A stretch of 64,000 nucleotides of DNA, taken from Candidatus Dojkabacteria bacterium (GTDB taxonomy: Bacteria > Patescibacteriota > Dojkabacteria > B142 > OLB20). The notes beneath the pieces were generated by a model that saw nothing but the letters and a program-made list of their open reading frames with translations, ran no database searches and was not told where the DNA came from. The DNA is taken from the NCBI GenBank assembly GCA_035444565.1, contig DAOMOX010000001.1, forward strand, positions 59,987 through 123,986, written 5' to 3'. Positions 12,948 through 58,895 of this stretch are shown here, piece after piece; the first letter of the stretch is position 1; each line of letters begins with the position of its first letter. The translations under genes were made by a program, and so were the position numbers.

Positions 12948-13211
12948 ATGTTTTATATATACATAATTCAAAGCAAAAAGGATCATAAGTTGTATACTGG
13001 TTACACCAAAGACATTGATAAGAGAGTGAGTGACCATAATCTAGGTAAAGTGAAATCAACAAAGGCCAGAATACCTTTTGAGTTAGTTTATAAAGAAATA
13101 TTTAGAACCAAGGAAGAGGCAATCGATAGAGAAAAAGAATTAAAAACTGGTCAATGGAGGGAATTGATAAAAGAATTTATCAAAGATGGTGGCAATAGCT
13201 CAGTTGGTTAG
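12948..13211 (+). CDS. Small GIY-YIG nuclease superfamily protein (YhbQ/UPF0213-like)
   Basis: 'FYIYIIQSKKDHKLYTGYTKDIDKRVSDHN' is a canonical GIY-YIG module followed by a conserved Glu. The 3' end overlaps the first 24 nt of tRNA-His. Confidence 0.75.
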   Translation: MFYIYIIQSKKDHKLYTGYTKDIDKRVSDHNLGKVKSTKARIPFELVYKEIFRTKEEAIDREKELKTGQWRELIKEFIKDGGNSSVG

Positions 13212-13265
13212 AGCGCCTCTCTGTGGAAGAGGAGGTCGTGGGTTCGAGTCCCATTTGCCACCCCA
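13188..13265 (+). tRNA. tRNA-His (anticodon GTG) with genome-encoded G-1 and 3' CCA
   Basis: Manual fold. G-1 precedes acceptor GTGGCAA/TTGCCAC. D arm GCTC-AGTTGGTTA-GAGC. Anticodon stem CCTCT/AGAGG with loop cTGTGga. T arm GTGGG-TTCGAGT-CCCAT. Discriminator C73 then CCA. G-1:C73 is the tRNA-His identity element. Confidence 0.9.
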
Positions 13266-14714
13266 TGTAGGACGCTGGTTCATTTCCACTAATGTAGAGA
13301 AGGGTATTTTATAATCATAGTGCAGTTTTGCACCATCCCAGTTAGCGTTCGATAGTACAAGATTCACAATTTTCGATTTATCGGCGTTATTTTCTTCTCC
13401 TTCTTGTAAAAATAGTTCATGAGCCTCTTGTGAAAGTTCGACAATTTTGTTTGCAGTTGTAAAGAAATTCTTATCCGCTAAATCAATATTCTTTAGCTTT
13501 GTAGTAATCATTCTAATCTCATTAGAGTATTCAGCATACTTAACATCATAGAGGTCTTTAGATATCTTCTCATCAAGATATTCATCATACATTTTGGAAA
13601 GTCTATTCCTTAGTTTGATTTTTCTATCCTGGAGTTCTTTTATTAGATCTTCAGAATAACCAGCCCTATCATTGTTAGTTTTCTTAATTGTTTCTTTAAG
13701 CTCTAATGCTATTTGAGGCTTAATCTTTATTTGTTTAAGTGCCTCTGCTATCTGCTCTGTTAATATTTCTTCCCTAACATAGCTTACAGCGTGTTTTTTT
13801 CTGCCCTGACTACAGCTATAGTAGTGAAAGCCTTTATGTCTTTCGGGGACCATTGAACACCCACAGATGGAGCATTTTATCAATCCCCGATATATGAAAT
13901 TGATTTTACCCATGAGTTTAACAGGATTAATTAATCTATTGGACCTGATATCCTCTGCTTTCCTGAAGAGTTCTTCAGATATTATTTGAGGATAAACATG
14001 CTTGTATTTAATATTCTTTTTCTTGTATGTAGCAATACCTATGTAAAAGTCATCCATTAAAATTCTACCTATCTTACTGCTCACTAGCTTTACATTATCT
14101 TCTTTGAGGGATTGAACAATCTCTCTAATAGACATACCATCATATACATAAAGATTAAAAATCTTCTGAACTACCTTAGAGGTAAACTCATCTACTACAA
14201 TATTATTGGGAACGTTTTTGTATCCATAAGGGGCTTTACCGAGTGATAAACCCTTTGATATCCTTTCATTAATAACCTTCTTAACGTTATCAGAAACGGA
14301 TAGTGCATAGCTTTTAGCAAACATTACCCCCATATCCCACCTCAATAACTCATGGCTCCTGGAGTCCTGGTTAATAACTAGATTTTCTGCTATGAAATGG
14401 ACCTCTATTTTATTGGATTTTCGTAAATCATCGAGTGCTACACTATCTCCGAAGTTACGCATACCTCTATCAATGGTATCAAACACTAATGCTACAACGG
14501 AGTTGAGTTCATCAACACGTTTCAACATCTCTTTGAAGGTTTTACGTTCATGCCTTCTACTTGCAGTTTCTACAACTTGATAAATATCTTTAGGAGATTG
14601 TATGAAGAGGTCGTTTTTTTCAAGGTAGGAATATACCCTCTTGAGTTGTGAAGGGATGGAGAAATTATCGCTTTGGTCTGGAGTTGATACTCTAGTAAAT
14701 ACGAAAGCCCTCAA
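13200..14714 (-). CDS. Large serine recombinase (phage integrase)
   Basis: N-terminal resolvase catalytic domain 'FVFTRVSTPDQ'. Central recombinase domain. Zinc ribbon 'CSICGCSMVPERHKGFHYYSCSQ'. C-terminal coiled coil. The 3' end overlaps the complement of tRNA-His. Confidence 0.85.
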   Translation of the reverse strand: MRAFVFTRVSTPDQSDNFSIPSQLKRVYSYLEKNDLFIQSPKDIYQVVETASRRHERKTFKEMLKRVDELNSVVALVFDTIDRGMRNFGDSVALDDLRKSNKIEVHFIAENLVINQDSRSHELLRWDMGVMFAKSYALSVSDNVKKVINERISKGLSLGKAPYGYKNVPNNIVVDEFTSKVVQKIFNLYVYDGMSIREIVQSLKEDNVKLVSSKIGRILMDDFYIGIATYKKKNIKYKHVYPQIISEELFRKAEDIRSNRLINPVKLMGKINFIYRGLIKCSICGCSMVPERHKGFHYYSCSQGRKKHAVSYVREEILTEQIAEALKQIKIKPQIALELKETIKKTNNDRAGYSEDLIKELQDRKIKLRNRLSKMYDEYLDEKISKDLYDVKYAEYSNEIRMITTKLKNIDLADKNFFTTANKIVELSQEAHELFLQEGEENNADKSKIVNLVLSNANWDGAKLHYDYKIPFSTLVEMNQRPTWGGKWDSNPRPPLPQRGALTN

Positions 14715-14779
14715 GTTATGAATTAATAATTAAACGTGGGAAGTAATCTTATTGAATAACAGATTGAGGATTTTGTCAA

Positions 14780-14998
14780 TTATTTCTTTGGTTGTCTAGG
14801 AGGCTGAGGGGGCTGAGGAATTATTCGTTTTTCTCTCCTATTCCTATCTTGGCTGCCCCTTATTTTCGGTCTAGGAGTTGGACGTTTACCCTGCCCCCCC
14901 ATGTTAATTATATTTCCCCCACTTATTAACAATGTGTTTTCAAAGTGTATTAAAGGCGATTGTGTTAGGATACCTTCTTCAGTTCCAATAATTTCCAT
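14780..14998 (-). CDS. hypothetical small protein with an Arg/Pro-rich basic C-terminus
   Basis: 72-aa ORF ending 'RPTPRPKIRGSQDRNRREKRIIPQPPQPPRQPKK'. Confidence 0.3.
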   Translation of the reverse strand: MEIIGTEEGILTQSPLIHFENTLLISGGNIINMGGQGKRPTPRPKIRGSQDRNRREKRIIPQPPQPPRQPKK

Positions 14999-15177
14999 GC
15001 GAGAATATTTCCTAATATACCTAATGCAACAGGAATATATCTACCTATTGCCCCACCTGCCGCTATTGCATCATCACTCACCATTGCAATCATGGTAGCA
15101 ATTCCAGCATAAAGAATAATCTTTACTGGAGTTGGTAGACTATCGAATTTAGATCTTGTTGTGTAGAGTAATCTCAT
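14965..15177 (-). CDS. small membrane protein (holin-like, 2 TM helices)
   Basis: 70 aa with two hydrophobic helices. Lies downstream of the putative lysin. Confidence 0.4.
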   Translation of the reverse strand: MRLLYTTRSKFDSLPTPVKIILYAGIATMIAMVSDDAIAAGGAIGRYIPVALGILGNILAWKLLELKKVS

Positions 15178-15182
15178 TACAA

Positions 15183-15374
15183 TTAATTAATAGATAAAAT
15201 AGGTGTAGGAACTGGAGCTAGTTCGTTAATGTCTGCACTCAACAATTCCCGATTAAATGTTTGTAGGTAAAAGAGTATTAATATCAGCAGTAAAACAACT
15301 GCTAGTGTGTACATAATAGAATCAGTTTTTCTCATGTTTTCGATTGAATAAATTTTTGATAAAGGTATAAACAT
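15183..15374 (-). CDS. small membrane protein (holin or spanin-like, 1 TM helix)
   Basis: 63 aa with TM 'MYTLAVVLLLILILFYL'. Confidence 0.35.
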   Translation of the reverse strand: MFIPLSKIYSIENMRKTDSIMYTLAVVLLLILILFYLQTFNRELLSADINELAPVPTPILSIN

Positions 15375-16491
15375 CTTTTAATAATCTTTTGTAATCATCT
15401 GCACTCCCTTGTGTTTCCTGGAGGAGTTTCTCATACTTTTCCTCTAGCTTATTGTATTGGGCGGTCTTTGTTATTAATTGAGAGTTTTGCTCTGCAACTG
15501 TATTCTTTAGTTCTACAATTTGAGGTTCCCAATTCAAAGCCTCATTTTCCAATACTAGAATTTGATGTTTCGCCTCTTCAAGTTCTTTCTTTTTGCCTAA
15601 CAGTTCCACGTGGGCTGTATCCAGTTGAGCATTGAGAGAGTCTATAGTCGGTTGTAATTCCTCTACTTGTGCTTTGTATTTGTTTCTATCTGTAGTTAAA
15701 CCCCCAATCCTTGCATTAAGTTTAGCTATCTCACTATCTTTAGTTGCTACAACTTTAGTCATTGTTTCAAGTTCAGTCTTAACCGCTTTGCATGGGTCGG
15801 GTCTATTATCATATTGTTTTGTAACCCCTTTAGCGGTTACTTCATAAAGCGCCTCTAACATACCAGTATTGATTGGTCCCCCATCATTCCCCACACTTTT
15901 ATTACAGAACACAGTCCAGGAGGTACCCTTTGAAATATTCTTAACAGTTGCGTTCTCATTGATAGAACCTGATGTAACCCTCATGTACATATCGGACCCT
16001 TTTAGATAAAGATCATAATTAAAACTCATTGGAGGTTGATTAGAATTAGAAATAGGTAAGTGTACGCCTTTGTTTAAGCCCGTATAGGCATTAGAACCAT
16101 AACTGGTTGATATCTTGATAGATGGGTCCAGGTGTTCTAGGTATCTTAGGTATTTAGTAACTGTACTAGCATATCCGCCAATCTTTATATGCACGTGTAG
16201 AAACTTTGAAGGTACTAAATCAAATGCAATTTCTCCTCTTTTAGCGGACCTTGCATTCCTGATATGAACTGCAAAGAGATAGTAATCTGTTCCAGTTAGT
16301 TTGAATACTGCATAATTGGTTCCATCCCCATTAGGTGCCTCTAATATCTTTTCATAGTCATACCATGCTCTATTAAGTCCAGGAGTATGTACCATGTCTA
16401 GACGATAACCCCCACTCTTTTTATGTTCGGCAGTTTGTAATCCGCCCCCTATGATAAATTCTTTTAAGTAACTGTTCCCTAAATAGCTCAT
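15322..16491 (-). CDS. Putative lysis protein: globular N-terminal domain with an HxH motif (possibly M23-like peptidase) and a ~150-aa C-terminal coiled coil
   Basis: 'LFAVHIRN...FLHVHIKIGGYA' resembles the M23 HxH region. The C-terminal half is a heptad-rich coiled coil. Two holin-like genes lie immediately downstream. Confidence 0.3.
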   Translation of the reverse strand: MSYLGNSYLKEFIIGGGLQTAEHKKSGGYRLDMVHTPGLNRAWYDYEKILEAPNGDGTNYAVFKLTGTDYYLFAVHIRNARSAKRGEIAFDLVPSKFLHVHIKIGGYASTVTKYLRYLEHLDPSIKISTSYGSNAYTGLNKGVHLPISNSNQPPMSFNYDLYLKGSDMYMRVTSGSINENATVKNISKGTSWTVFCNKSVGNDGGPINTGMLEALYEVTAKGVTKQYDNRPDPCKAVKTELETMTKVVATKDSEIAKLNARIGGLTTDRNKYKAQVEELQPTIDSLNAQLDTAHVELLGKKKELEEAKHQILVLENEALNWEPQIVELKNTVAEQNSQLITKTAQYNKLEEKYEKLLQETQGSADDYKRLLKDVYTFIKNLFNRKHEKN

Positions 16492-16587
16492 ATGATGGCA
16501 TTAAGTAAGAAGTAGGTTTGCATCAGAAATAAATAGATTGAAGTAATGGTTACAATAGAGAGAAGAATTTTTATTATCCTAATATCT

Positions 16588-16986
16588 TTATTCATTGTCT
16601 GAATCTAATAATTCAATAGATACGTAAGCTATATCCTTATTCAATGTAGGGTCAAAAGAGAGGTTCACATGGCGGAGGATTGTATAGTTATCATCACTTA
16701 GAATAGCGGTATCTACTAGTAAATCAGCTATGCTTTCAAACTTATTGGAAAGGTCCCATTTTCTCTTACTAGCAGTACCAAAAAGGACATCGATTTTAAC
16801 TGGAGTATTTACTGGAAGTTCTATTTCTGACCGATACAGAGCCTTCTGTACGTTGAGTTCCCATTTCTTATCCCTTGCCCATTGTTCGTGATTAACCGAG
16901 GGTACACTAAATTTTCTACCACCCCTCATAATCATCCTTCTTGAGTTCTTCTTACTAGGGATTATCCCTTCAAGAATAAAGTTCAT
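16588..16986 (-). CDS. rusA: RusA-family Holliday junction resolvase
   Basis: 132 aa. Contains 'PSKKNSRR', 'VPSVN' and 'ILSDDNY', which are conserved RusA catalytic Asp and PSxN blocks. Confidence 0.7.
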   Translation of the reverse strand: MNFILEGIIPSKKNSRRMIMRGGRKFSVPSVNHEQWARDKKWELNVQKALYRSEIELPVNTPVKIDVLFGTASKRKWDLSNKFESIADLLVDTAILSDDNYTILRHVNLSFDPTLNKDIAYVSIELLDSDNE

Positions 16987-17345
16987 TTAGGGGATGAGAT
17001 TAAGTTAAATACAAACTGAATCAAGAATACAACTCCAGGTAATCCCAGGAATGAAATTACAAGCCATAGGTTTTGGAATATCCATTGATTCTTTTCTCTG
17101 TATCTAGTATTGACCTGATGTTCTGCAATCATGTTTTCGGTAATGTCTAAGTGGTTCCTCAATTGGTCCCTTACTCTATTAACCTCTTTTTCTAAGGTAT
17201 CCGTTCTCTTCGTGATAGTATCAATTGCTATTGGAATTACCCGAATCTGCTCTGATACTTCTGCAAACTTCTCAACCATTGTTTGCCTTAACCAACTAAC
17301 ATCATTTTTAATTACAGCAATATCAGTAGTTTCTTGATGGTCCAT
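16983..17345 (-). CDS. hypothetical coiled-coil protein with a C-terminal TM anchor
   Basis: 120 aa. Ends 'WLVISFLGLPGVVFLIQFVF'. Confidence 0.4.
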   Translation of the reverse strand: MDHQETTDIAVIKNDVSWLRQTMVEKFAEVSEQIRVIPIAIDTITKRTDTLEKEVNRVRDQLRNHLDITENMIAEHQVNTRYREKNQWIFQNLWLVISFLGLPGVVFLIQFVFNLISSPK

Positions 17346-17362
17346 AAGGTTTAATTACTAAT

Positions 17363-17425
17363 TTTTGCTTTCGGGAGTATTACTTTTATGTTGCAAAAAG
17401 TCAAGAAAAAAGTAATACTCCGCCC
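17363..17425. promoter_or_regulatory. Bidirectional palindromic late-promoter-like element (TTGCAA-N16-TAATACTCCGCCC going right; TTGACT-N16-TAATACTCCCG going left)
   Basis: 14-bp perfect palindrome arms GGAGTATTACTTTT (17374-17387) and AAAAGTAATACTCC (17408-17421). The element sits immediately before the TerL ATG. The same motif is found at 42786-42820 and 45983-46016. Confidence 0.55.
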
Positions 17426-19873
17426 ATGAAATCAAATACATACACTTACAAAGAGTTAATGATAGAAACAATTCGCAGGAGAAGAGAGGAAAAATATAGG
17501 TTTTATGAACCCATTGGTAAGGTTGAGGAGTTTCTTAATAATTTTGGTTCATGTGATTTTTTTGTTTCTGTGCTGAGTGCCGCTAATGGTGTTGGCAAAA
17601 CTACTTTAATAGGGAATATATTAGCTAATCTATTCTATCCGAATAAGAACTCATACTTTCATCAGAAATTGTTTCAAGATTATCCTTTCTCATTAAAGCG
17701 TGGAAGGATAGTTTCTGAACCTACTACCATCAAAGAAACGATTATACCTATGTTAGAGGAGTGGTTAATTCCTGGTACCTACAAGCGTGAAAAAATGGGA
17801 AAGAATTACTACTACCATTGGGAGGTAGAGGGAGGATGGGTTTTCGATATTATGAGTTATGATCAAGCGGTTAAAGAGTTTGAATCTATTACTTTAGGAT
17901 GGTGTCTCTTTGACGAACCACCGCCTGAACCAATTTATAAAGCCACAGTATCACGTATGAGGCGTGGGGGTATCATTGGTATATTTATGACCCCTCTAGC
18001 AGGTTCAGCCTGGATTTATGATGATATTATTGCTAATCAGAACAATGATGAGGGAGAGAGATACTGGAGTACAGCAGAGATGGAGGACGCTTGTTTTCCT
18101 TTATGGATGGAAGTGTTAACAAACCAAGGTTGGAAAAGTTTTAATGATATAGATATCAAAATTGATAAGTATGCAAGTGTAGATTCATTTAATAATAGAT
18201 TCAGCTTCAAAAAATCAACTAGGTTGGTAGAGAAAACCGCTAATGAATTATGCTATCTCAATAGTGGAATTACCTGCACACCAGATCATGACTTTCCCGC
18301 AATTAGAGATGATGGGAAAATACATAGAGTTAAAGCATCACAACTATACAGGGGAAACAAATTACTAACAAGATCTAGAATACACTCCGATAAACTAAAT
18401 TATTCTCCTGATGAAAGGTTTACACCTCTGCAATGGGCAGAGTTTTTAGGGTGGTATATCTCCGAGGGATGCGCTGAAGGGTCAAAGAGTGGAAATAACC
18501 AACACAATCAAGTAATAATTTCTCAAACAAATAAAAGACTCGAACTAGAAACTTTCCTAAATTCTCTCCAGATAGGGTTTAAAAGTAAAAAATCAGGCGA
18601 TAATTGGATATGTGATGAAAAACTTCATCAAATACTTTCACCACTAGGAACAGCAAGAGATAAATATTTACCTTCATATGTGTTTGAAGGGGATTATGAT
18701 TACAGGCATAGACTCCTCGACTCGTTAATAATGGGAGATGGAGATGAGAACGATACTGCATATAGATATAGGACATCTTCAGAAAGATTATCAGACGATA
18801 TACAAATCCTTGCTATGAGTTTAGGTTACAGAACAACAATTACATATCAATCTAATAGGGAAAGATATATTAAAGGTAAAAAACTTCCAGCTATAGGTGG
18901 TGTTTACACTATACGAATACTAAAAAGTAATAAAAACATTTATATTGAAAGAAAACCAGAAATACATACCACAGAACCACAAAAAGTGCGGTGTGTAACA
19001 GTCGAGGATGGCTACATCTTTGTTCGTAACCCGATAGAGAAAGTACCAGTAATAGCAGGGAATTGTATTGAGCATGGAGTTAGAGGTTTCCTACAACACA
19101 AAGATATTGAAAGGATTGTAAATCAGTTCAGCGAGGAAGATAAACAAGCTAGGGTAAAGGGACAATTCCAGCATTTAACAGGCTTAGTATTCAAACAATT
19201 CCAGCCACAAATCCATGTAATAGAACCTTTCGATATAGATATATATAACTATGTAGTAGTGGAGGCACTAGATACTCATCCACGAGTTCCAGATGCTTTG
19301 CTTTATGTAGCAATAAACGAGCAGGGACAGCACTTTGTTATAGATGAATCCTTCGAGAATAACACAACATCACAACTTGCTTTCAAGATTAAACAAAAGA
19401 GGTCTAACTACAGAGTGGTGAAGAAACTTATTGAACCAGCCGCATTTAACCAGGACCAGCATAGAGATTTAAGACAAGGACAATATGCATCCTTAGCAGA
19501 TGAGTTGTATTACGAACATGGATTAGACTTTGAGGCAGGTAGTAAAAGAAGATTAGATGCCATCAAAAGGATTGGGGACTATTTATCCTATCAGAAAGTC
19601 GGGGACCAGTTCATTACATCCCCTAATCTATATATCTTTAGTAGTTGTACGAGATTGAAGTATGAAATTCAGCACTACTTATGGGATGAGTGGAGAGGTA
19701 AGTCGGCTGAATATAGGTCTAAAAAAGAAACACCAATGGACAAGGATGACCACTTGATAGAGGATTTGGGTAGGGTTCTATTAGAGAACGTTCAATTCAC
19801 ACCATATGTTAAGCCATCTTCAATGGACAATAATTCTATTTCTTATAATTCAGATCCATATGCCAAAGTCTAA
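17426..19873 (+). CDS. terL: Terminase large subunit (TerL) interrupted by an intein
   Basis: N-terminal ATPase with Walker A 'AANGVGKTT' and Walker B 'WCLFDEPPP'. C-terminal nuclease region after the intein. The exteins together are ~491 aa, a typical TerL size. Confidence 0.85.
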   Translation: MKSNTYTYKELMIETIRRRREEKYRFYEPIGKVEEFLNNFGSCDFFVSVLSAANGVGKTTLIGNILANLFYPNKNSYFHQKLFQDYPFSLKRGRIVSEPTTIKETIIPMLEEWLIPGTYKREKMGKNYYYHWEVEGGWVFDIMSYDQAVKEFESITLGWCLFDEPPPEPIYKATVSRMRRGGIIGIFMTPLAGSAWIYDDIIANQNNDEGERYWSTAEMEDACFPLWMEVLTNQGWKSFNDIDIKIDKYASVDSFNNRFSFKKSTRLVEKTANELCYLNSGITCTPDHDFPAIRDDGKIHRVKASQLYRGNKLLTRSRIHSDKLNYSPDERFTPLQWAEFLGWYISEGCAEGSKSGNNQHNQVIISQTNKRLELETFLNSLQIGFKSKKSGDNWICDEKLHQILSPLGTARDKYLPSYVFEGDYDYRHRLLDSLIMGDGDENDTAYRYRTSSERLSDDIQILAMSLGYRTTITYQSNRERYIKGKKLPAIGGVYTIRILKSNKNIYIERKPEIHTTEPQKVRCVTVEDGYIFVRNPIEKVPVIAGNCIEHGVRGFLQHKDIERIVNQFSEEDKQARVKGQFQHLTGLVFKQFQPQIHVIEPFDIDIYNYVVVEALDTHPRVPDALLYVAINEQGQHFVIDESFENNTTSQLAFKIKQKRSNYRVVKKLIEPAAFNQDQHRDLRQGQYASLADELYYEHGLDFEAGSKRRLDAIKRIGDYLSYQKVGDQFITSPNLYIFSSCTRLKYEIQHYLWDEWRGKSAEYRSKKETPMDKDDHLIEDLGRVLLENVQFTPYVKPSSMDNNSISYNSDPYAKV
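18092..19063 (+). mobile_element. Intein (324 aa) with a LAGLIDADG homing endonuclease domain, inserted in TerL
   Basis: Block A starts with Cys ('CFPLWMEVLT'). Block B 'GITCTPDHDF'. LAGLIDADG motifs 'LGWYISEGCAEG' and 'LLDSLIMGDGDEN'. Block F 'VRCVTVEDGYIFV'. Block G 'VPVIAGN' is followed by the +1 Cys ('CIEHG'). Confidence 0.8.
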
Positions 19874-20084
19874 ATCACCTGAAAGAAAACTATTGAGTCA
19901 AAAAGAGTGTGTGATGAAGGTATCAATATATGAGGCTACATTAATCCTGGAATTAAGGAAACTGAGTTTTGGGAATGTAACTATTTATAAAAACATGGGA
20001 GAACCTTTCAGAATTAATCTAAATCAATCTAAGAACCTTAATATAGATGAGGCGGTTAAATCAGAAGATGTACAAATACTCTAA
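19860..20084 (+). CDS. hypothetical small protein
   Basis: This ORF overlaps the TerL 3' end. A start at 19860 or 19914 is possible. Confidence 0.3.
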   Translation: MPKSKSPERKLLSQKECVMKVSIYEATLILELRKLSFGNVTIYKNMGEPFRINLNQSKNLNIDEAVKSEDVQIL

Positions 20085-20113
20085 AATACAATTTTATTTA
20101 TTAGGACAATACA

Positions 20114-20506: not shown

Positions 20507-20507
20507 A

Positions 20508-23627: not shown

Positions 23628-23643
23628 CTCTTAAAATAAAATA

Positions 23644-50531: not shown

Positions 50532-50692
50532 CAGAAGAGGACAAGCAGAGTATAGTAGAATATCTACAGGCGTTACAAAGCATAAAGGACCGCACTACAG
50601 AAGGTTAATAATTGAATTGTGGTGGACAATGCGGGGCATAGGGGTATGTTTAAGTTGTCCATCACAACCCATTTACATTTTAACCAATCCAA

Positions 50693-51414: not shown

Positions 51415-51493
51415 AAATTCACGAGGTTAATAAGTTCATAAGGGACACTAAAGTCACATTGATAAGCGAATATTATGACGGACAGGTTGCCCG

Positions 51494-51742
51494 ATGAAGA
51501 GTACTTCAAAAATGAACTTAATACAGAAAGCTCAAAAGGTTAAAACAAGCACTTATTCATATAACAAGAAGTATACCTTTGAGGAGGTACAACTTGCCAA
51601 TGCTTGGGTTCATAGAGCAGTTACTTCTCACCAATTAGCTACAGTACTGAACATGAGTGGCGGAAATATTTATGTATTTATTTGTGGAGCTTTAAAGTAT
51701 GGTGCAAGCAAGGGTTGGTTAGAAACAAATATAATTTATTAA
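51494..51742 (+). CDS. hypothetical protein
   Basis: 82 aa. Confidence 0.35.
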   Translation: MKSTSKMNLIQKAQKVKTSTYSYNKKYTFEEVQLANAWVHRAVTSHQLATVLNMSGGNIYVFICGALKYGASKGWLETNIIY

Positions 51743-51750
51743 ATAATGAC

Positions 51751-52089
51751 ATGAACTATTATCCCAAAACTATAAAAAAAGACCCACTCCATAATTGGAA
51801 AGAGGTTGAGAAATATCGAGACAATAATAAAGGGAGATTACCAACAGAGCCAACTATTAAAGAAAGGGATATTAGGCTTTTAATAGATGAACTGGGCTTT
51901 GAATGGCACTCAGTTAGAACTTGGATTTTTGAAAGGGCTTATGGAGTTGAAAAGATTAGATTCACAATAAGCCAGAGTAGAACGCAAAAGGACCATTGGA
52001 TGTTCACAATTAAAAGCAAGGGTTATATACAGCAAACAAGAACTAATAAGTTAGAAGAGATTTGGAACGAGATACACGCTCATTTTTAA
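51751..52089 (+). CDS. hypothetical protein
   Basis: The track ORF starts at 51682 and overlaps the upstream gene. The internal ATG at 51751 is preferred. Confidence 0.35.
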   Translation: MNYYPKTIKKDPLHNWKEVEKYRDNNKGRLPTEPTIKERDIRLLIDELGFEWHSVRTWIFERAYGVEKIRFTISQSRTQKDHWMFTIKSKGYIQQTRTNKLEEIWNEIHAHF

Positions 52090-52218
52090 ATTATTATTTC
52101 TTATTATGAAAATAAATACAGAAATAGCAAAAGGAACTAAAAAAGTACCAACACTTGATATTACCAAGAAGGTAAATCAAGATCCTATCCAAAAGAGAGA
52201 AGATAACTAACTTATTAA

Positions 52219-52653
52219 ATGATTGATATGTTAAAAAGAAAATTTAGAATAGATGATTATGGTGATTTACTTGCAGAGGGAGTGGGGAAAAAGCTCATTT
52301 CTATTACTTATTTCGGTAGCTATCAGGGCGATTGGATTGCCGCACTTGATAATGGAAAGAACATAGAGGTTTGGAAGGGTTTTTATGGTAGTTGTTCGGT
52401 GTGTGATTCGTTACAGTCGATGTATCGTATGGATAAAAATGCAGACGACTATTTAACTAGGGGAGATATTGACGCATTGACAGATATGCTCAAAGAAGAG
52501 GGTAACCCATTCATTAAAATACCTAAGAATATATTTAATGACATTTCTGTAAAAGATTTTGAGGCACTACTTCCTCTGAATACCAGGGCTGACATATACA
52601 ACTTCGATGCAGGGGAATTATTAACAGATATTAGACAAGCTCTTCAAAACTAA
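52219..52653 (+). CDS. hypothetical protein (144 aa)
   Basis: ORF containing a CxxC pair 'CSVCDS'. Confidence 0.4.
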   Translation: MIDMLKRKFRIDDYGDLLAEGVGKKLISITYFGSYQGDWIAALDNGKNIEVWKGFYGSCSVCDSLQSMYRMDKNADDYLTRGDIDALTDMLKEEGNPFIKIPKNIFNDISVKDFEALLPLNTRADIYNFDAGELLTDIRQALQN

Positions 52654-52807
52654 ATAGGAACCAAACACAGGTGGTTTGCTTGACCGAAAAGAGGGCGTAG
52701 AGGGAATGTGCAAACGTAGCACTAGGTCGGTAAGTTACGCATTAGCCATGAAAGAAGTCGACTCAGACATGGCAGACCGCAGACCACCTCTGTTTAGTTT
52801 TTATTAA

Positions 52808-53047
52808 ATGCTTGATATGAGCTATATAGATTTTATTTATCAAGAGCCACCAGATGAAGGGGACTTCTATGCAGACTTAGCAGAGCTAGATAGGCAATGG
52901 ATTTGGAAAACAAAGAGTGGTGAGGAAATAGAATATGACAAACTAGAAACAAGTCATATTCAAAACATCATTAAAAAACTTAAAGTGGAAAGGTACAACA
53001 TGCCAAATTTATTCAGAGAATTAAGAAGAAGAGGGTTTACTAACTAA
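52808..53047 (+). CDS. hypothetical protein
   Basis: 79 aa. Confidence 0.35.
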   Translation: MLDMSYIDFIYQEPPDEGDFYADLAELDRQWIWKTKSGEEIEYDKLETSHIQNIIKKLKVERYNMPNLFRELRRRGFTN

Positions 53048-53065
53048 CTTATTAAATGAAACCAA

Positions 53066-53359
53066 ATGACAGACAAAGAAAAAGCCGAAAAGAAGAATGA
53101 GTATTACGAGAAATTCGTGGGCTATGATGCATATGACGAGTTAACAGATGCAGAACAGGAGAAGCTATTGATATGGGAATGGATAGAGGAACTGATTAAA
53201 GAAGTTGAGAACAAAATAGAATCAGATATCCAAGACATTAGGATAGATTATTATCAAAAGTATTTAGGACACAATGTTTTGAAAGAGTTATCTGTACACG
53301 AGATGGAAAAAGTAATGATATGGAACTGGTTTGAAGAAAAGTTACGGAACTTTTCGTAA
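53066..53359 (+). CDS. small acidic protein with two WxWIEELI-like repeats (paralog of 51184-51414)
   Basis: 'LLIWEWIEELIKEVENK' and 'VMIWNWFEEKLRNF'. Confidence 0.45.
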   Translation: MTDKEKAEKKNEYYEKFVGYDAYDELTDAEQEKLLIWEWIEELIKEVENKIESDIQDIRIDYYQKYLGHNVLKELSVHEMEKVMIWNWFEEKLRNFS

Positions 53360-53437
53360 CCATCTTTATGTTAAAGAGAAAAATGTGAAGTCCTGATTTA
53401 AGCTCATTATTCCAGTTCTAAACACGTCCCATAAGGC

Positions 53438-53515
53438 ACCCCAGTGTTTCTGAGCTTGCGAAGAAATACACTGGGTAAGGTCTGCCGTAGCTTTAGCGTA
53501 GGCATGACCACCCCA
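53438..53515 (+). repeat. 78-bp direct repeat, copy 1 (75/78 identical to 58818-58895); contains a hairpin CCAGTGT-N22-ACACTGG
   Basis: 'accccagtgtttctgagcttgcgaagaaatacactgggtaaggtctgccgtagctttagcgtaggcatgaccacccca'. Confidence 0.85.
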
Positions 53516-53561
53516 TTTCATCAATTAACTTAAATCCAATCAAACTCTCAAAAAAACATAT

Positions 53562-54554
53562 CTAGTTTAAGATAGTTGTTAAATCAGACTCGTCTAGCAT
53601 GATTGCAAGATCTTTTAGTAATTCATGTCCCTCCGGCATATGAACTCCAGGTAAATTAGCAAGGACATGATCAGTAACACCATCACTATATACGTCAGGA
53701 TTTGCATATCTATATTGCATTATTGGATCGAGTGCTAATTGAGATAAAATATTTCCCGGAATCATAGCCATACTCATTTCGGCAAATATTACCCCTCCTC
53801 TCAACGTTTTACCATCATACTTCCCGGCAGTTCCTTTATGTTCTCGTTTGACTCCTTCCGCCAAATCAATACCTGAATCACCATACCGTCTTAAGGGATC
53901 GTTGAATAAAAGTAATTCTGTTTCTCTTCCAACGTAACCAAAAATACGCCTCCTAACATGACCTTCTTTAACAGGATGGCCAAATGCATGCTCATACAAA
54001 CCCCAGTATTGATCAAAGCTCAATTGAAGTTGTTTTCTAAACAGAATATTTAATGTGTTTTGTTCTAAATATTGAGTAATAAGTGAGGAAATATGTTTAA
54101 TTTCTGGCCTTATTAAGATTGCTGAGACACCATTTGCTACCAGTGCATTTACCTGAGGTATTTTTTCTGCAAACAACCGCTCCAAGTTGATACCGCCAAG
54201 ATACCGAAATGTGCCATAGTCTTGACTATTTAATATTGGAAGGACTTCCGGGAAATCGCAATGTGCAGATACAATCATTGCTTTTTCTATGTATCCTTGT
54301 GCTGCATTTGAGTCTTTTGGAGTTAACCCAGTCTCTTGAGTCAAATACAAAAGTTGTTGGGGTAGAATGTGTGCTAATTCTTTCATAGCCTGCCCAGCAA
54401 GAAAAGTGAGATGTTCATTTCTTTGTTGATAGAAAGGAGGCATTTCTTCGGGTTCAGAAGAAAAAGATCTTTCAAAAAAATCTAGATATTGAGTGATCGA
54501 AATTTGGTTAACATTTGGGGCAGTTCTATTTTCACCAGAGAACTTGAGATTCAT
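53562..54554 (-). CDS. hypothetical protein (330 aa), last gene of a 4-gene operon
   Basis: Long ORF separated by 6 nt from the CYTH gene. No motif recognised; 'RRYGDSGIDLAEG' is faintly nucleotidyltransferase-like. Confidence 0.5.
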   Translation of the reverse strand: MNLKFSGENRTAPNVNQISITQYLDFFERSFSSEPEEMPPFYQQRNEHLTFLAGQAMKELAHILPQQLLYLTQETGLTPKDSNAAQGYIEKAMIVSAHCDFPEVLPILNSQDYGTFRYLGGINLERLFAEKIPQVNALVANGVSAILIRPEIKHISSLITQYLEQNTLNILFRKQLQLSFDQYWGLYEHAFGHPVKEGHVRRRIFGYVGRETELLLFNDPLRRYGDSGIDLAEGVKREHKGTAGKYDGKTLRGGVIFAEMSMAMIPGNILSQLALDPIMQYRYANPDVYSDGVTDHVLANLPGVHMPEGHELLKDLAIMLDESDLTTILN

Positions 54555-54560
54555 GTTTCA

Positions 54561-55208
54561 TTATTTAAACAAAAGCTCGGAATAAAAATTAATATTATAT
54601 AGATCAAAAAAACTCTGTCCCGAAAGAATTGATACTTGATTTCCCCCTAGACCAAGTTTTTTAATCCAATTATGAATGATTTCAGAATTACTTGCTTCAA
54701 TCTCCAAATAAGTAGGGATTCCTGGCCACGTATCAATATCAAAATGAGCAGAAAGTGATTCGTGAACAATTTGGTATGAAATTCTTTTTTTCTGTTGATG
54801 TGCAGTAACAATTAAACCAGCATCGGTAATAGTTTGGCCAATTTTTCCCCATTCATTCTTTGTTAAATTTGTATTTAGCTCGACTTCTTTTTTTACGTCT
54901 ATATTGTGAGACTTTGAAAATTTAAGTGTAAACTCATAATGCTCACCTTGTTTTCGTGCTCGTAAATGATAATTTTGATCACGCAATGATTTACCATGCC
55001 AAGTTAATTCTTCAGCAATTTTAATAGTATCTACTAGTTTTGCCGGTAGCTTTGTATATTCAATTTCAAGACTCTTACTTATATCGAAAGTCCAAATTTC
55101 AGTAAGAGCATCTAAAATTTTTTCAGCATGATTCTTTTCAAGTTCATTTATTAAATGTTCCTTGTTTACTGCTAATACTTTTAATTCTAATTCTTCTACT
55201 TTTTTCAT
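54561..55208 (-). CDS. CYTH-domain protein (class IV adenylyl cyclase / triphosphate tunnel metalloenzyme family)
   Basis: N-terminal 'ELELKVLAV' (EIE[RK]KFL-like) and C-terminal 'YLEIEA'. Length 215 aa fits a CYTH domain. Confidence 0.55.
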   Translation of the reverse strand: MKKVEELELKVLAVNKEHLINELEKNHAEKILDALTEIWTFDISKSLEIEYTKLPAKLVDTIKIAEELTWHGKSLRDQNYHLRARKQGEHYEFTLKFSKSHNIDVKKEVELNTNLTKNEWGKIGQTITDAGLIVTAHQQKKRISYQIVHESLSAHFDIDTWPGIPTYLEIEASNSEIIHNWIKKLGLGGNQVSILSGQSFFDLYNINFYSELLFK

Positions 55209-55209
55209 T

Positions 55210-56109
55210 TTAAGTTAATAATATATCAATGGATTCATCTTCATTAAGCAAATACTCCGTTGCTCTTTCGGACAGCCTAGCTATTTTATCGGGGCTACTG
55301 TTTATCTTGTATGGGACATTTGTTCTATAAGTCCGATACAAGATCGTGGCTGCAATATATTGGTTTATTAAATTCTTATTAAATGTTAACCCAAAGCTAG
55401 TTTCAAAACCAGAAAAGAATGCATCGAAAATCTCTCTACGAGCATCAGAGTTTAGAAGTAAATGACCTAATGCATAACCAATATCGAATTCTTTTATACC
55501 TACGCAAACTGTTTCTAAATCACAAATCTTAATTTCTCCTTCCGTATCTATCAATATATTTTTTGGGGATAGGCTCCCCATTATTAACCCTTTATTACCT
55601 TTATTTAAAAGTTGTAGATGATTAAATCCGGGGATTCTTGAAAATCTAAAATTTAATATTTGTTCAAAAAATGATTTATCGTCTTCCCTAAACTCATCAA
55701 CAACTGGCAATTTAGATTGCACACAAGCAATTAGCTCACCAAACTTAAACGCGAAGCCAGGTGTGATTCCAGACGAGAAAATCATATTTTGTAGTGTATC
55801 TCCACCTGATGGTAATAAATCCGATAGAACAATTATCCCATTTTCAATATCTTCACCTAATAAGAGAGGGAAATTTTTAGGGGCAATTCCTGAAAATATT
55901 TTTATCCCTTCTGCTTCATATTCAATCTCATGAGGTTGTGTAGTTACATTTTCCAATTGTGAGGCACTTTTACCTCTGATTTTTACTATATACGTTCCAT
56001 CTTCACCAAAGATTCTATAGACCTGATGTACTAAGCCACCCGACAATTCAGCAACATTCACTGGTTTATAATTTAGATATTTTTCAAGTACAAGATTTGA
56101 TTCCGTCAA
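55210..56109 (-). CDS. APH/ChoK-family small-molecule kinase (phosphotransferase enzyme family)
   Basis: Nucleotide-binding 'LSGGLVHQVYRI'. Catalytic region 'PKNILIDTEGEIKICDLE'. 299 aa. Confidence 0.6.
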   Translation of the reverse strand: MTESNLVLEKYLNYKPVNVAELSGGLVHQVYRIFGEDGTYIVKIRGKSASQLENVTTQPHEIEYEAEGIKIFSGIAPKNFPLLLGEDIENGIIVLSDLLPSGGDTLQNMIFSSGITPGFAFKFGELIACVQSKLPVVDEFREDDKSFFEQILNFRFSRIPGFNHLQLLNKGNKGLIMGSLSPKNILIDTEGEIKICDLETVCVGIKEFDIGYALGHLLLNSDARREIFDAFFSGFETSFGLTFNKNLINQYIAATILYRTYRTNVPYKINSSPDKIARLSERATEYLLNEDESIDILLT

Positions 56110-57044
56110 AATACTCTAGGTAAAAAGAATTCGGGAGGTTCAAAAAGCTGAGTTTCAGAAAAATCATCTCTTTGTATACTGCTAACAATTTGTTCATACG
56201 ACCAATCTGGACAAACATTATGTGGTATTTGTACAGTATCTCTACCTAAGTGAGCTAATTGCCTCACCCCAACAATATAATATGGTGGTCTATAAGTATC
56301 TTCACTTAAACCACCATCTATCCCCATATTAATCATAAGATCATCAGTCTCAATTCTTGATCTCTGAATCACACCTTCAATTTCTTCTAATAAAAATTCT
56401 CTAGTATTTCTTAAGGGTAATTTATCTGTGAGATATAAAATATGTTTAAGTTTTGCTTTCAGTACATATTGGTAGTCATCCCTTATTACTCGCCATGCTT
56501 CAAGTTTGCTCGAAAGATGGTCATCAATCATTGATCTTGTGACAGTACCTGTATTTAGTTTGCCTTCGAGGATATTTACATACCAATTTGATTCACTCAA
56601 TCGCGGTACAATCATTCCAATTACTGCTCTTAATCCGTTAATGTTTTCTACATCAAATTGCAATTTTAATAGTTCTGAAAATTGTGGAAATAGATAATCA
56701 AAGCCGGCAAACAATGATTGCCTATCCCAATAAGGAATATTTTCGGTATTTGACCCACCCCATTCTGCGATTCCTGTGACAACATGAACTTTTGTATGCC
56801 TATCCATCCTTCTCAAATGGTTTGGCTTGGACAAATCAATTCCAGCTTGAAGTTGAGTATTAGGCTTAACTTTTTCCTTCTCTCTAGCATACATGTCGTT
56901 TACGGCTTCAAAAAACATTACTGGATGTGATACCACTTCTTGAAGGGGATAATTTAATACTGCAGTATGGGACGCTGAACTGTTTGGAAATAGTTCTTGG
57001 TCAAAGATGTGATTTTTAACGTCTGTGGAGAATTCACTACCCAT
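56106..57044 (-). CDS. hypothetical protein (312 aa), first gene of the 4-gene operon
   Basis: ORF overlapping the kinase start by 4 nt. Confidence 0.5.
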   Translation of the reverse strand: MGSEFSTDVKNHIFDQELFPNSSASHTAVLNYPLQEVVSHPVMFFEAVNDMYAREKEKVKPNTQLQAGIDLSKPNHLRRMDRHTKVHVVTGIAEWGGSNTENIPYWDRQSLFAGFDYLFPQFSELLKLQFDVENINGLRAVIGMIVPRLSESNWYVNILEGKLNTGTVTRSMIDDHLSSKLEAWRVIRDDYQYVLKAKLKHILYLTDKLPLRNTREFLLEEIEGVIQRSRIETDDLMINMGIDGGLSEDTYRPPYYIVGVRQLAHLGRDTVQIPHNVCPDWSYEQIVSSIQRDDFSETQLFEPPEFFLPRVF

Positions 57045-57183
57045 ACCTTAATATATTATATTAATAAGTAATGTGGGCAGTTAAAATAAATGTGTTATCC
57101 ATTATACCATTTAAGTAAAGTGTGATTAATAGGAGGTCGTCTTGTAGTACATCCTATACGAGTCCTACAAGTGACCCCCCATC

Positions 57184-57918
57184 TTAGGAATTATTTATTG
57201 AGAATTTATCCAATTCTTTTTTCACTTGTACTAATAATTGTTTATCAACTTTAAAATCCTTTGAGTAAATTTCGTTATGTAATGAGCTCAAATCAAGTAT
57301 GATATCTTTAGTATGTATATCATCAGGATTGAAATCATTGACCATAACAACTAATGGTTTAACGAAAAGTTTGTCATGCGTATCTTCGGGTAATTTATCC
57401 AGCAAAAACTTTCTTAATCTCATTGCATTGGATAATGCCTGTGTATTTGGAGATCTTAGTAATTGTTTACGCTTACCACTTATACCAAATTTCCGTTTCT
57501 CAGTTCGATACCATTTATCGCCATATACTTCAATCCTACCTGTATAATTCTTAGTTTCTATTACAAAAATCCCTTTCCTAGATAAGACAATATGGTCAAT
57601 ATCCATCTTACTATTAGGTAGCATTATATTTTGGTAACTATAACTATGCTCTACTTCTAACAGTTTATTAGCAACAACTATTTCTCCTTGGTCACCTCTT
57701 TCGTAACTATCATAGCTATCCCAGCTCGAAAAAAACATATCAATTATCTTATCCATTAATATGAATAGTCCACAAAAGCCTAACAAATAGAATAACAAAG
57801 TATTTTGCACAATGAATTTTTTATCAAGTAGAATGAGGAATATCAACACTGTAATAAATCCGCTAAGTAGCATTATTATAAGTTTTCTGGATTTTTGTTT
57901 TTTAGAATATTTACTCAT
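57184..57918 (-). CDS. Membrane-anchored NERD (nuclease-related domain) protein
   Basis: Two N-terminal TM helices, then 'QGEIVVANKL...MDIDHIVLSRKGIFVIETKNYTGRI', the NERD signature. Confidence 0.7.
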   Translation of the reverse strand: MSKYSKKQKSRKLIIMLLSGFITVLIFLILLDKKFIVQNTLLFYLLGFCGLFILMDKIIDMFFSSWDSYDSYERGDQGEIVVANKLLEVEHSYSYQNIMLPNSKMDIDHIVLSRKGIFVIETKNYTGRIEVYGDKWYRTEKRKFGISGKRKQLLRSPNTQALSNAMRLRKFLLDKLPEDTHDKLFVKPLVVMVNDFNPDDIHTKDIILDLSSLHNEIYSKDFKVDKQLLVQVKKELDKFSINNS

Positions 57919-58056
57919 ATATGAATCAGTATAAACACTTTGTTCATGAACATGAAGACCTTGCTAGATACCATCATAAAATGAACAGTCAGTTAATGTA
58001 AAATTGACTAATTAAAGCAATAATATTAAAATCCTAATATATGAATCCTTCTCCAA

Positions 58057-58365
58057 ATGACTGATAAAGTAGTTAAACTCTCAATAGATAATAGACTAAT
58101 AATATTGGTTGTTTTATTAGTTGCAGGAATCTTTTCTCTATTTGTAATGTACGAAAAGATTAATGACCAACAAAAGCAGTCCAATTTCGAAGAATGCCAA
58201 GCCTCAGCATACAAGAGGTTCGGGGAACGACTTCAGTCACTTTGTGGAAAAAAAGATCTCTCAGAATGTCAAGCCTCAGAAATATCTACAGACTTAGCAG
58301 ATCACTACACTAAAATGTATGATGATGAGAATGATGATTGTTTGAAAATTATGCTTTATGATTAA
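58057..58365 (+). CDS. small secreted or membrane-anchored Cys-containing protein (paralog of 58372-58674)
   Basis: N-terminal TM or signal, then 'FEECQASAY...LCGKKDLSECQASE'. Confidence 0.45.
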   Translation: MTDKVVKLSIDNRLIILVVLLVAGIFSLFVMYEKINDQQKQSNFEECQASAYKRFGERLQSLCGKKDLSECQASEISTDLADHYTKMYDDENDDCLKIMLYD

Positions 58366-58371
58366 TTTGCT

Positions 58372-58674
58372 ATGAAAAGGTCCTATGCTTTAATCGCACT
58401 CATATTTACAAGTTTAATTATAATCATGCTTGGTATCCTAGTTGGATACCCAATTTATAAGGACCAATCAAGAAAAGAGCTTGTTAGTAATTGTAACGAG
58501 TTTCGAGATTTCTCACTTAGAGAGAAGCTTAGCGAAGTGTGCAAAGACGAGGGTTTTAGAAACACTGACGAATGTAAACTTCCAGATGATACGTTTAAAG
58601 CTATAAATAATTACGCGGACATACAAGAGGAAGCATGCATCAAACAAGACTGGCCTTCCAAATATGATGAATAG
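58372..58674 (+). CDS. small secreted or membrane-anchored Cys-containing protein (paralog of 58057-58365)
   Basis: N-terminal TM, then 'SNCNEFRDFSLREKLSEVCKDEGFRNTDECKLPDD'. Confidence 0.45.
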   Translation: MKRSYALIALIFTSLIIIMLGILVGYPIYKDQSRKELVSNCNEFRDFSLREKLSEVCKDEGFRNTDECKLPDDTFKAINNYADIQEEACIKQDWPSKYDE

Positions 58675-58794
58675 TATTAGTTTATAGTATATAGTTTCCA
58701 ATACCCATGTAATGATATTGAGAACTACTAAATTGTCGACTCTGAAAGCAGTGAATTTATATTATTAATGTTGAAGTTAAAATCAATTTTAAGG

Positions 58795-58895
58795 TTTAGC
58801 AACGAGTCCAACAAGTGACCCCAGTGTTTCTGAGCTTGCGAAGAAATACACTGGGTAAGGTCTGCCGTAGCTTCAGCGAAGGCATGGCCACCCCA
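58795..58895 (+). repeat. Boundary element: 'ggtttagcaacgagtccaacaag' (22/23 identical to 29701-29723) fused to copy 2 of the 78-bp repeat (58818-58895); 'cgagtccaacaagtgacccca' resembles the tRNA-His 3' end
   Basis: Direct comparison with 29701-29723, 53438-53515, 57155-57176 and the tRNA 3' sequence 'cgagtcccatttgccacccca' (16/21). Confidence 0.75.

Follow-up and report, generated by a model that had tools for sequence, protein, structure and literature searches.

The 64,000-nt window analysed here (contig DAOMOX010000001.1 of the Candidatus Dojkabacteria assembly GCA_035444565.1, positions 59,987–123,986; all coordinates below are those of the window) carries a prophage in which the gene for the large terminase subunit, TerL, has left its usual place between those for the small subunit, TerS, and the portal. 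We read the element, with a probability of roughly 80%, as one temperate podovirus-like phage of 40.2 kb, integrated by a serine recombinase at the tRNA-His gene and carrying a late region of derived layout. The displacement of TerL is a real, if modest, oddity: a small subclade of temperate podophages associated with the candidate phyla radiation (CPR) has a late region that is rearranged, in a derived and stable way.

The listing of open reading frames (ORFs) gives four strand blocks, minus at 13.2–17.3 kb, plus at 17.4–29.7 kb, minus at 29.8–48.5 kb and plus at 48.9–53.4 kb; an earlier note on this DNA had the same blocks and coordinates but counted three. The canonical TerS-TerL-portal adjacency is not found in the prophage. 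TerS overlaps the portal gene by 14 nt with no TerL between them, and TerL lies on the other strand. The gene calls thus agree with the note that TerL and the receptor-binding genes are on the opposite strand, about 26 kb from TerS on the linear map; start to start, the distance between TerL and TerS is about 11.7 kb across attP. The note had also remarked on the 34 kb between the integrase and a putative regulator, which holds on the linear map only and shrinks to about 6.4 kb across attP. The map of the prophage corresponds to a circle opened at attP, and the 34-kb figure is an effect of this linear map without biological meaning.

To place this layout among related phages, TerL was searched without its intein, which gave 529 homologues at E≤1e-10, and a profile of 16 TerL homologues was used in a survey of IMG/VR. 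The survey returned 80 loci, 79 of them distant relatives with 43–53% TerL identity. In 72 of the 72 loci with enough downstream sequence, TerL is followed by the portal gene on the same strand, with a median gap of 676 nt; the remaining 7 were too short to judge. Where the sequence reaches, the capsid gene follows in 63 and the adaptor gene in 43. Two ENA contigs (L012 and L013) likewise carry TerL, a small ORF and the portal gene on one strand. L012 (ERZ27309300 k141_420249) is the nearest canonical relative, with 58% TerL identity, and reads on one strand: a helix-turn-helix (HTH) gene, TerS, TerL, a 71-amino-acid ORF, portal, p161, capsid, p179, p124, adaptor, p167, p130, LamG and p605 (proteins without a better name are designated by p and their length). 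Homologues of p130, LamG, p605 and p90 lie downstream of the adaptor gene on the portal strand in canonical relatives, and in loci centred on p605 (L095–L102) p478 and a giant ORF of 1235–1870 amino acids come after the tail genes without a change of strand. The ancestral order is therefore TerS, TerL, small ORF, portal, head genes, adaptor, tail genes, p478 and giant gene, all on one strand. Since the 72 informative IMG/VR relatives and the two ENA contigs all show it, the displacement of TerL is derived. The atypical architecture claimed by the note thus stood up to comparison with related phage genomes: the order of the window departs from all 72 relatives and is shared by close ones. Deposited phages gave distant and mosaic matches, all in canonical order and too distant to set the direction of the change.

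With s for the small ORF, P for the block from portal to p167, T for the tail genes and G for p478 plus the giant gene, the ancestral TerS [TerL s] P T G has become TerS P G inverse([TerL s] T) in the window. As a signed permutation this is +2 +4 −3 −1, with 5 breakpoints, and takes at least 3 reversals (or one transposition plus one inverted transposition). The 74-amino-acid ORF that follows TerL in the window is homologous to the ORF which separates TerL and portal in canonical relatives, so that a two-gene module has moved. Excision from between TerS and portal would have freed TerL and the small ORF, which came to head the tail module; inversion of the resulting unit and its transfer past the giant gene would have completed the change.

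An inversion had been proposed in the note as one way to this layout. In its simplest form it would have flipped the 17.4–29.7 kb block alone, either once or reversibly, as a tail-fibre switch of the Gin/Cin type. In its favour, receptor-binding genes lie within the block and a serine recombinase is among the products of the phage; tail-fibre segments are inverted in this manner in Mu and P1. We nevertheless judge it highly improbable: undoing the inversion leaves TerL downstream of the giant protein gene and not beside TerS, the permutation needing at least 3 reversals, no inverted repeat of 9 nt or more links 17250–17500 to 29600–29900, and all assemblies and relatives show a single orientation. 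An invertible tail segment of the Mu G or P1 C type was likewise rejected, the block ends carrying no inverted repeats and the orientation being one throughout.

The layout is not particular to one assembly. Three further contigs, ERZ773355 NODE_12 (186.9 kb), SRR1763385_60976 (39.3 kb) and SRR1763381_6080 (34.9 kb), match the window at 100% identity across the junctions that they cover: all three cover 17.35–17.43 kb, and SRR1763381_6080 also 29.7–29.8 and 48.5–48.9 kb. The viral contig IMGVR_UViG_3300048838_000562 (47,932 bp; L008, L010 and L093), with 88–97% nucleotide identity, does not depart from this order anywhere in its reconstructed 1.16 genome units, whose period is 41,267 bp. More distant is L011, with 79% TerL identity, where divergent homologues of the 389-amino-acid coiled-coil protein (cc389) and p120 are followed by TerL, the small ORF and the full tail series (p130, LamG, p605, p90, H-lectin, p182, Gp10_C and p156), and then by a convergent large ORF. 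The head arm is seen in L109, with 64% portal identity, which reads p116, Rep-O, p105, TerS, portal and so on to adaptor, p167, p478 and the giant gene, with neither TerL nor tail genes between its head-arm genes.

These data bear on the possibility, raised in the note, that the order is an assembly artefact; wrongly made contig joins, or a chimera, would then hide a true phage that is collinear in standard order. The source is a metagenome-assembled genome (MAG), and the related IMG/VR contig is inconsistent at the strain level between its overlapping ends. On the other side stand three separately assembled contigs, from different runs and assemblers, which are identical at the junctions covered, a relative that keeps the order across an attP-type junction, a layout shared at 88–97% nucleotide, 79% TerL and 64% portal identity, and genes that interlock (TerS and portal by 14 nt, p167 and p478 by 1 nt). 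We regard an artefact as extremely unlikely.

Persistence of the derived layout across substantial divergence also argues against a scrambled, dead prophage in which gene order no longer matters. Such decay would fit the failure to recognise lysis genes or an excisionase, the interruption of TerL by an intein, and a host genome that is small and comes from a MAG. It would not fit large ORFs that are all intact, TerL catalytic motifs that are kept with exact intein boundaries, gene layout and promoter positions conserved down to 64–79% protein identity, and a close relative with an attP-type junction in a viral contig; we consider it unlikely. The TerL intein, of LAGLIDADG type, spans 324 residues (amino acids 223–546, CFPL...VIAGN/C, window 18092–19063; here and below a slash marks a junction). 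It begins with Cys1 and ends in an Asn ahead of Cys+1. An allele without the intein, from other samples (P0002, 491 amino acids), aligns without gaps on the predicted extein, with 476 of 491 residues identical (97%) and the junction EMEDA/CIEHG intact. Pfam matches to intein and LAGLIDADG families were weak, below the cut-offs. All residues of TerL that differ from P0002 lie outside the invariant alignment columns, so the Walker A, Walker B and DKDDH nuclease motifs are kept, and TerL looks functional as judged by its conserved residues. A distant TerL homologue of 800 amino acids (P0076) also has an intein domain.

The ends of the prophage were placed at 13266 and 53443 because two junctions found elsewhere define them. 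In the viral contig IMGVR_UViG_3300048838_000562, window position 13248 is joined directly to 53447, giving an attP-type junction, ...CACGTCCCATAAGGCACCCCA/TGTAGGACGCTGG..., and the MAG DTUPAT2 (JAJTYI010000004.1) provides the phage-free junction, tRNA-His...GCCACCCCA/GTGTTTCTGAGC, also written CCACCCCA/GTGTTTCTGAGC. In the window, attL reads tRNA-His ...CCCATTTGCCACCCCA/TGTAGGACG (with a longer left flank, ...TTTGCCACCCCA/TGTAGGACG) and attR reads ...CATAAGGCACCCCA/GTGTTTCTGAGC, also given as ...AAGGCACCCCA/GTGTTTCTG. The four junctions are mutually consistent. The core common to attL and attR is only 7 nt, CACCCCA, which at attL forms the acceptor end of tRNA-His plus CCA, so that the tRNA gene stays intact. 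A search for long direct repeats of the tRNA region that might serve as att sites gave none of 16 nt or more, hence the use of the relative's junction; the dyad at attP is weak and imperfect (9 of 16 positions). An attB search in JGI metagenomes gave no match.

With these ends, the phage stops well short of the right limit of the interval 13200–58895 that the note had taken for it. Position 58895 is the end of the second copy of a 95-nt direct repeat (53421–53515 and 58801–58895, 91% identical; repeat lengths are about 78–95 nt, starting at the att core), and the two copies bracket a 5.3-kb island. Its genes are those for three unassigned proteins (p330, p215 and p312), a kinase-like p299, a NERD protein and a pair of small membrane proteins (Pfam, PADLOC); scans of the window genes found neither an integrase nor phage structural genes in it, and PADLOC gave domain-level NERD and methyltransferase matches but no convincing defence system. 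The IMG/VR phage lacks this segment.

The alternative of two independent elements, also named in the note, was right to the extent that the interval holds the phage and the island in tandem; all phage genes, however, are in the first of them. In its stronger form it would make TerL, tail and integrase genes one mobile element and TerS, head and replication genes another, side by side. Besides the island, tRNA-His is an integration hotspot, with a different serine-recombinase element in DTUPAT2, and a 24-mer resembling an att arm lies at the convergence point at 29.7 kb. However, a single attL/attR pair flanks the prophage and the relative's attP-type junction joins exactly those ends; neither half would be viable as a phage alone, four shared promoter motifs span both halves, and the 24-mer is absent from L011 despite the same layout. 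Two separate elements are accordingly very improbable.

The 24-mer, AGGTTTAGCAACGAGTCCAAyAAG, is found at 29701–29724, after the stop codon of the last tail gene, and again at 58792–58815 at the right end of the island, where it abuts an att-type junction, CCCCA/GTGTTTC; it also occurs at about position 1099 of CXWK01013210.1 (L107). It resembles the 3′ half of tRNA-His and the left arm of attP, and is present in the IMG/VR relative. It may be a vestigial att arm and stands as an unexplained observation. Integrase-mediated inversion or fusion at this copy was tried as an origin of the layout and rejected, as undoing it gives no canonical order and L011 lacks the 24-mer.

The separated modules share a promoter-like motif, TTGACx-N17-AATACT. 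The whole 64 kb contains exactly four copies of its 13-mer AAAGTAATACTCC, against a chance expectation of 0.17 in shuffled sequence with one mismatch allowed, and every copy is intergenic and points at the gene downstream (TerS, capsid, p120/RusA and TerL). Upstream of the 13-mer copies is TTGAC(A/T) or TTGCAA, with a spacer of 17–18 nt to AATACT. The IMG/VR relative has the same four copies, while L011 and L109 carry a variant, TTGACA-N17-(A/G)CATACTCC, at the same four positions, including upstream of TerS in L109. The 80-bp divergent control region between p120 and TerL holds two copies back to back, in a variant arrangement in L011. On its TerL side, 7 nt separate the end of AATACT, and 4 nt the end of the ACTCC motif, from the ATG; the 4-nt distance recurs in L011. 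Such close spacing suggests that the TerL mRNA is leaderless or near-leaderless.

The four shared motifs suggest co-regulation of the separated modules. Terminase would act in trans, so that the position of its gene should be immaterial if timing is kept, and the four copies probably keep the modules co-expressed. Drawn as a circle, the genome has RusA, integrase, attP, RecT, the putative regulator and the replication initiator together in a segment of about 11.7 kb for early functions, lysogeny and replication. The two late operons flank it, point away from it and converge at 29.7 kb on the far side, one arm carrying TerS, portal, capsid, adaptor, p478 and the giant polyvalent protein in that order and the other TerL, the small ORF and, after these, the genes for tail and receptor binding. 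Translation of TerL may start on an mRNA with no leader or hardly any, and the product would then need intein splicing. A fuller version of this, which we offer as tentative and rather doubtful as a whole, is that the subclade has stably abandoned the near-universal TerS-TerL-portal linkage for two convergent late arms that regulation, in place of synteny, holds together and that are run from four phage-specific promoters, two of them back to back (TerS/portal, capsid, leaderless TerL/tail and RusA/lysis-like genes), the rearrangement having arisen perhaps via the promoter copies or att-like sites.

Several points weigh against the reading of an intact temperate phage with an in-place rearrangement. 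No endolysin, holin or excisionase was recognised by PHROGs or Pfam in 13266–53443, so that of the "one complete gene set" claimed in the note, the single phage gene set with its atypical layout stands and its completeness is unproven. The TerS of the window is not homologous to that of L012, so that part of the layout may stem from recombination that swapped a module with another phage, and not from rearrangement in place. The overlapping ends of the IMG/VR contig are only 84–91% identical, and what looks like attP could, in place of a free circle, reflect prophages in tandem or a mixture of strains. The sequences L011 and L109 belong to separate samples, with no physical link that would make them arms of one genome. 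Promoter function, timing and the leaderless start are predictions from the sequence, and the generic sigma-70 scan, like that for terminators, was not enriched over shuffled sequence and was unused as evidence.

Some observations on the same genes and contigs stand beside these points. For the functions that the scans did not recognise, the prophage offers as candidates p120, which is membrane-anchored, p200 and the N-terminal domain of the 389-amino-acid coiled-coil protein; in L013, a canonical relative, the tail genes are followed by one for an Amidase_2 protein. In the IMG/VR contig the LamG-repeat gene encodes 892 amino acids in one copy and 1693 in the other; the contig represents either two diverged tandem prophages or a strain-mixed assembly, and the junction is of attP type either way. 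L011 and L111 (Logan SRR25425400 and SRR25425399) begin at the identical base, 3.1 kb upstream of TerL, which could be a physical genome end in this 79% relative or a repeat that breaks assemblies.

Table 1. Features of the prophage and its surroundings (window coordinates).
Feature	Position	Strand	Basis
Prophage	13266..53443 (40,178 bp)	.	relative's junction and phage-free junction in MAG DTUPAT2
tRNA-His (GTG), integration target	13189..13265	+	ARAGORN
attL core CACCCCA	13259-13265		within tRNA-His 3′ end; attL/attR/attP compared
attR core CACCCCA	53437-53443	.	attL/attR/attP compared
Separate island, outside the phage	53444..58895	.	repeat-flanked; absent from IMG/VR phage
Large serine recombinase (integrase)	13200..14714	-	Pfam Resolvase, Recombinase, Zn_ribbon_recom; phrog_95 at 3e-61
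Block B: coiled-coil 389-amino-acid protein	15322-16491	-	homologue at same position in L011 and IMG/VR relative
Block B: RusA-like resolvase	16588-16986	-	PHROG RusA families
Block B: p120, 120 amino acids, C-terminal transmembrane segment	16983-17345	-	homologues in L011 and IMG/VR relative
Divergent control region, 80 bp	17346..17425	.	two motif copies back to back; variant arrangement in L011
Promoter-like motif, p120/RusA	17374-17404 (13-mer 17374-17386)	-	
Promoter-like motif, TerL	~17392-17421 (13-mer 17409-17421)	+	
TerL, 815 amino acids	17426..19873	+	529 homologues at E≤1e-10, some named terminase or with Terminase_6N
Small ORF, 74 amino acids	19860..20084	+	homologue of ~70-amino-acid TerL-portal ORF in canonical relatives
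Tail/receptor-binding module	20114..29702	+	Pfam Laminin_G_3, H_lectin; PHROG tail families
LamG-repeat (Laminin_G_3) protein, 1039 amino acids	20508-23627	+	Pfam
p605	23644-25461	+	tail module
H-lectin protein, 707 amino acids	25796-27919	+	Pfam H_lectin
Gp10_C tail-fibre-like protein	28474-29232	+	tail module
Convergent junction of the two late arms	29703..29814	.	palindromic hairpin and T-run (AAGGGTACCCTTATTTTTT)
p318	29815-30771	-	distal head arm
Polyvalent protein, 2277 amino acids	30863-37696	-	Pfam LPD38, Zeta_toxin; ParB-like PHROG match
p478	37720-39156	-	distal head arm
Head module	39156..45941	-	TerS, portal, p100, p161, capsid, p179, p124, p90b, adaptor, p167
SU10-type adaptor	39678-40433	-	matches relatives' genes carrying SU10_adaptor (PF24175)
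Major capsid protein	41704-42681	-	phrog_1357 at 2e-70
Promoter-like motif, capsid gene	42790-42820 (13-mer 42790-42802)	-	
SU10-type portal	43631-45559	-	PF23899 at 42.2 bits (cut-off 30)
TerS	45546-45941	-	phrog_309 at 5e-24
Promoter-like motif, TerS	45984-46015 (13-mer 45984-45996)	-	
Replication/regulation genes	46012..48462	-	p105, Rep-O-like, p200, p116
Replication-initiator O-like protein	46331-47185	-	phrog_270 at 3e-31
p116, weak-HTH protein, putative regulator	48112-48462	-	HTH matches below threshold
Early arm	48915..53359	+	p94, RecT, YopX, small ORFs up to p97
RecT	49192-50094	+	PHROG RecT at 3e-43; Pfam RecT
YopX	50693-51187	+	Pfam YopX

The features of the window are collected in Table 1. 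PHROG and Pfam together recognise TerS, TerL, portal, capsid, adaptor, tail and receptor-binding genes, Rep-O, RecT, RusA and integrase in the prophage. Block B, which is 15322..17345 plus the integrase, also has three small ORFs; p200 is a membrane protein, and p97 is found also in the IMG/VR relative. For the capsid protein, exact-protein look-up returned the version with an ATG start and not that with a TTG start. The tail module runs p130, LamG-repeat protein, p605, p90, H-lectin, p182, Gp10_C protein and p156. The C-terminal half of the Laminin_G_3 protein consists of 14-amino-acid (42-nt) repeats, roughly (I/V)xKDLxYx(I/V)xTxxx, in a run whose length differs strongly among close relatives; the protein may be a hypervariable receptor-binding or decoration fibre. 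In NCBI, a TerL 100% identical to this one stands under Candidatus Dojkabacteria, as a hypothetical protein on a MAG contig of 620,866 bp, and many TerL homologues carry the labels Patescibacteria or Parcubacteria.

In agreement with the note, no tape-measure gene was found: PHROG and Pfam scans gave no family match except coiled-coil noise in cc389. The podovirus-like particle that the note deduced from the giant protein agrees with the SU10-type portal and adaptor found here, beside the giant protein itself. In this protein LPD38 scores 52.7 bits (cut-off 27) and Zeta_toxin 36.9 bits (cut-off 22.3), and a zincin-like motif, HEFTH, is present. Polyvalent proteins of phages and conjugative elements, a concept attributed to Iyer and colleagues in 2017, are said to be very large and to combine LPD domains with several unrelated enzymatic domains; the 2277-residue protein, with LPD38, Zeta_toxin and a ParB-like match, fits.

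The note had also considered a crAss-like two-arm organisation, in favour of which are the opposed gene arms, the giant virion-type protein and the lack of a tape-measure protein. CrAss-like phages have genomes of about 95–100 kb. The present genome has 40 kb, a capsid of phrog_1357 (Bacillus phage Page type) and a SU10_portal; the nearest deposited relatives of its TerL are a Manatee Spring podovirus and Arthrobacter phages, and both arms are late and structural here, not replication versus structural. A crAss-like phage or organisation thus has next to no probability.

The integrase has its three domains above the curated cut-offs (PF00239 at 39.8 bits, PF07508 at 51.3 bits and PF13408 at 33.6 bits). 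Its ORF reads through the attL crossover site into the antisense strand of tRNA-His (window 13200–13290), so that the last 20–30 residues change on integration: the integrated form has 504 amino acids (...TWGGKWDSNPRPPLPQRGALTN), against 513 in the attP form of the relative (...TWGALWDVFRTGIMSLNRDFTFFSLT). The same three-domain architecture is found in phiC31, Bxb1, A118 and SPbeta, and, as in these prophages, the att sites seem to share a short core and no long duplication; the system differs from them in a target at the extreme 3′ end of a tRNA gene, and in an integrase ORF that crosses the crossover site. Targets in tRNA genes are more usual for tyrosine integrases.

In DTUPAT2 (L103, JAJTYI010000004.1, 1–8000), a different element of 7.2 kb with flanking repeats of about 150 nt sits at the same tRNA-His and encodes a 548-amino-acid large serine recombinase, a SNase-domain protein, a DUF4352 protein and an HTH-Peptidase_M78 regulator. 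With this different serine-recombinase element at the site, tRNA-His is an integration hotspot in Dojkabacteria-like genomes. On the other side of the gene in the window, a 72-nt promoter-like segment is duplicated (12615–12686 and 12804–12875), a 30-nt copy of the 5′ end of tRNA-His lies at 12876–12905, and downstream of this copy a small GIY-YIG ORF (12948–13211) overlaps the start of the real tRNA-His; 12615–13211 looks like an old insertion or duplication on the 5′ side of the gene.

Prophages of Patescibacteria as such are not new and are already on record (PMC12455944, PMC6509639); literature searches gave no description of this phage group or its layout. Two things make the case of wider use.

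The TerS-TerL-portal adjacency is among the most dependable synteny rules for annotating tailed phages and judging the completeness of prophages. This is a clean case, with known direction of change, of a lasting exception to the rule that diverged relatives share. Callers of prophages and viruses that expect the packaging genes in one piece could split such elements wrongly. Why the loss of linkage is tolerated has a testable explanation in the four motif copies. In addition, large serine integrases are standard enzymes of genome engineering and, to our knowledge, genetic tools for CPR bacteria are almost absent. A precisely delimited and apparently intact serine-integrase prophage of Dojkabacteria, with attP, attB, attL and attR readable, would be a tool for CPR genetics.

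The closest known systems are the metagenomic phages of the SU10-portal clade (L012 and IMG/VR L014–L102; about 37–42 kb, linked to Patescibacteria), with TerL 43–58% identical, a similar genome size, and homologous portal, capsid, adaptor, p167, p130, LamG, p605, p478 and giant protein; some members have RecT, YopX or a Rep-O-like early gene. In contrast to them, TerL of the window phage is joined to a tail module that is inverted, its TerS belongs to a different family, and it has a serine-integrase lysogeny module, of which none was seen in the fetched parts of the other members. Among named phages, Bacillus phage Page (Pagevirus, a 39.9-kb podophage) has a capsid 35% identical over 91% of the length, a similar genome size, RecT, DnaD/Rep-type early genes and a 1679-amino-acid ORF in the virion region. 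It differs in having TerS-TerL-x-portal-capsid with every gene on one strand, and its TerL and portal have no detectable sequence similarity to those of the window phage. The nearest deposited phage relative of TerL (31% identity) is ordered TerS-x-TerL-portal. As for Escherichia phage SU10 and Kuravirus, from which the Pfam families SU10_portal and SU10_adaptor derive, the portal matches PF23899 above the cut-off and homologues of the adaptor match PF24175 weakly, whereas the genome is about half as large, the host belongs to the CPR and the phage is temperate. Membership in Kuravirus was rejected, given a genome of 40.2 kb against about 77 kb and a portal for which tblastn against 50,697 deposited phage genomes gave no match at 1e-3.

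For the uncoupling of the terminase genes itself there are parallels, not homologous to the window phage, in which TerL works although encoded apart from TerS or the portal, and even on the opposite strand. In P2 the portal Q and TerL P are transcribed opposite to the scaffold O, capsid N and TerS M; in T7, TerS gp18 and TerL gp19 follow the tail and core genes, far from the portal gp8; in phi29 the ATPase gp16 is at the end of the late operon, so that T7 and phi29 both link the packaging ATPase to the tail-distal late region. From these three phages, function of TerL in trans is to be expected here as well. The two P2 operons, however, are adjacent and divergent, whereas here TerL heads the tail operon, 11.7 kb from TerS on the circle and 26 kb on the map.

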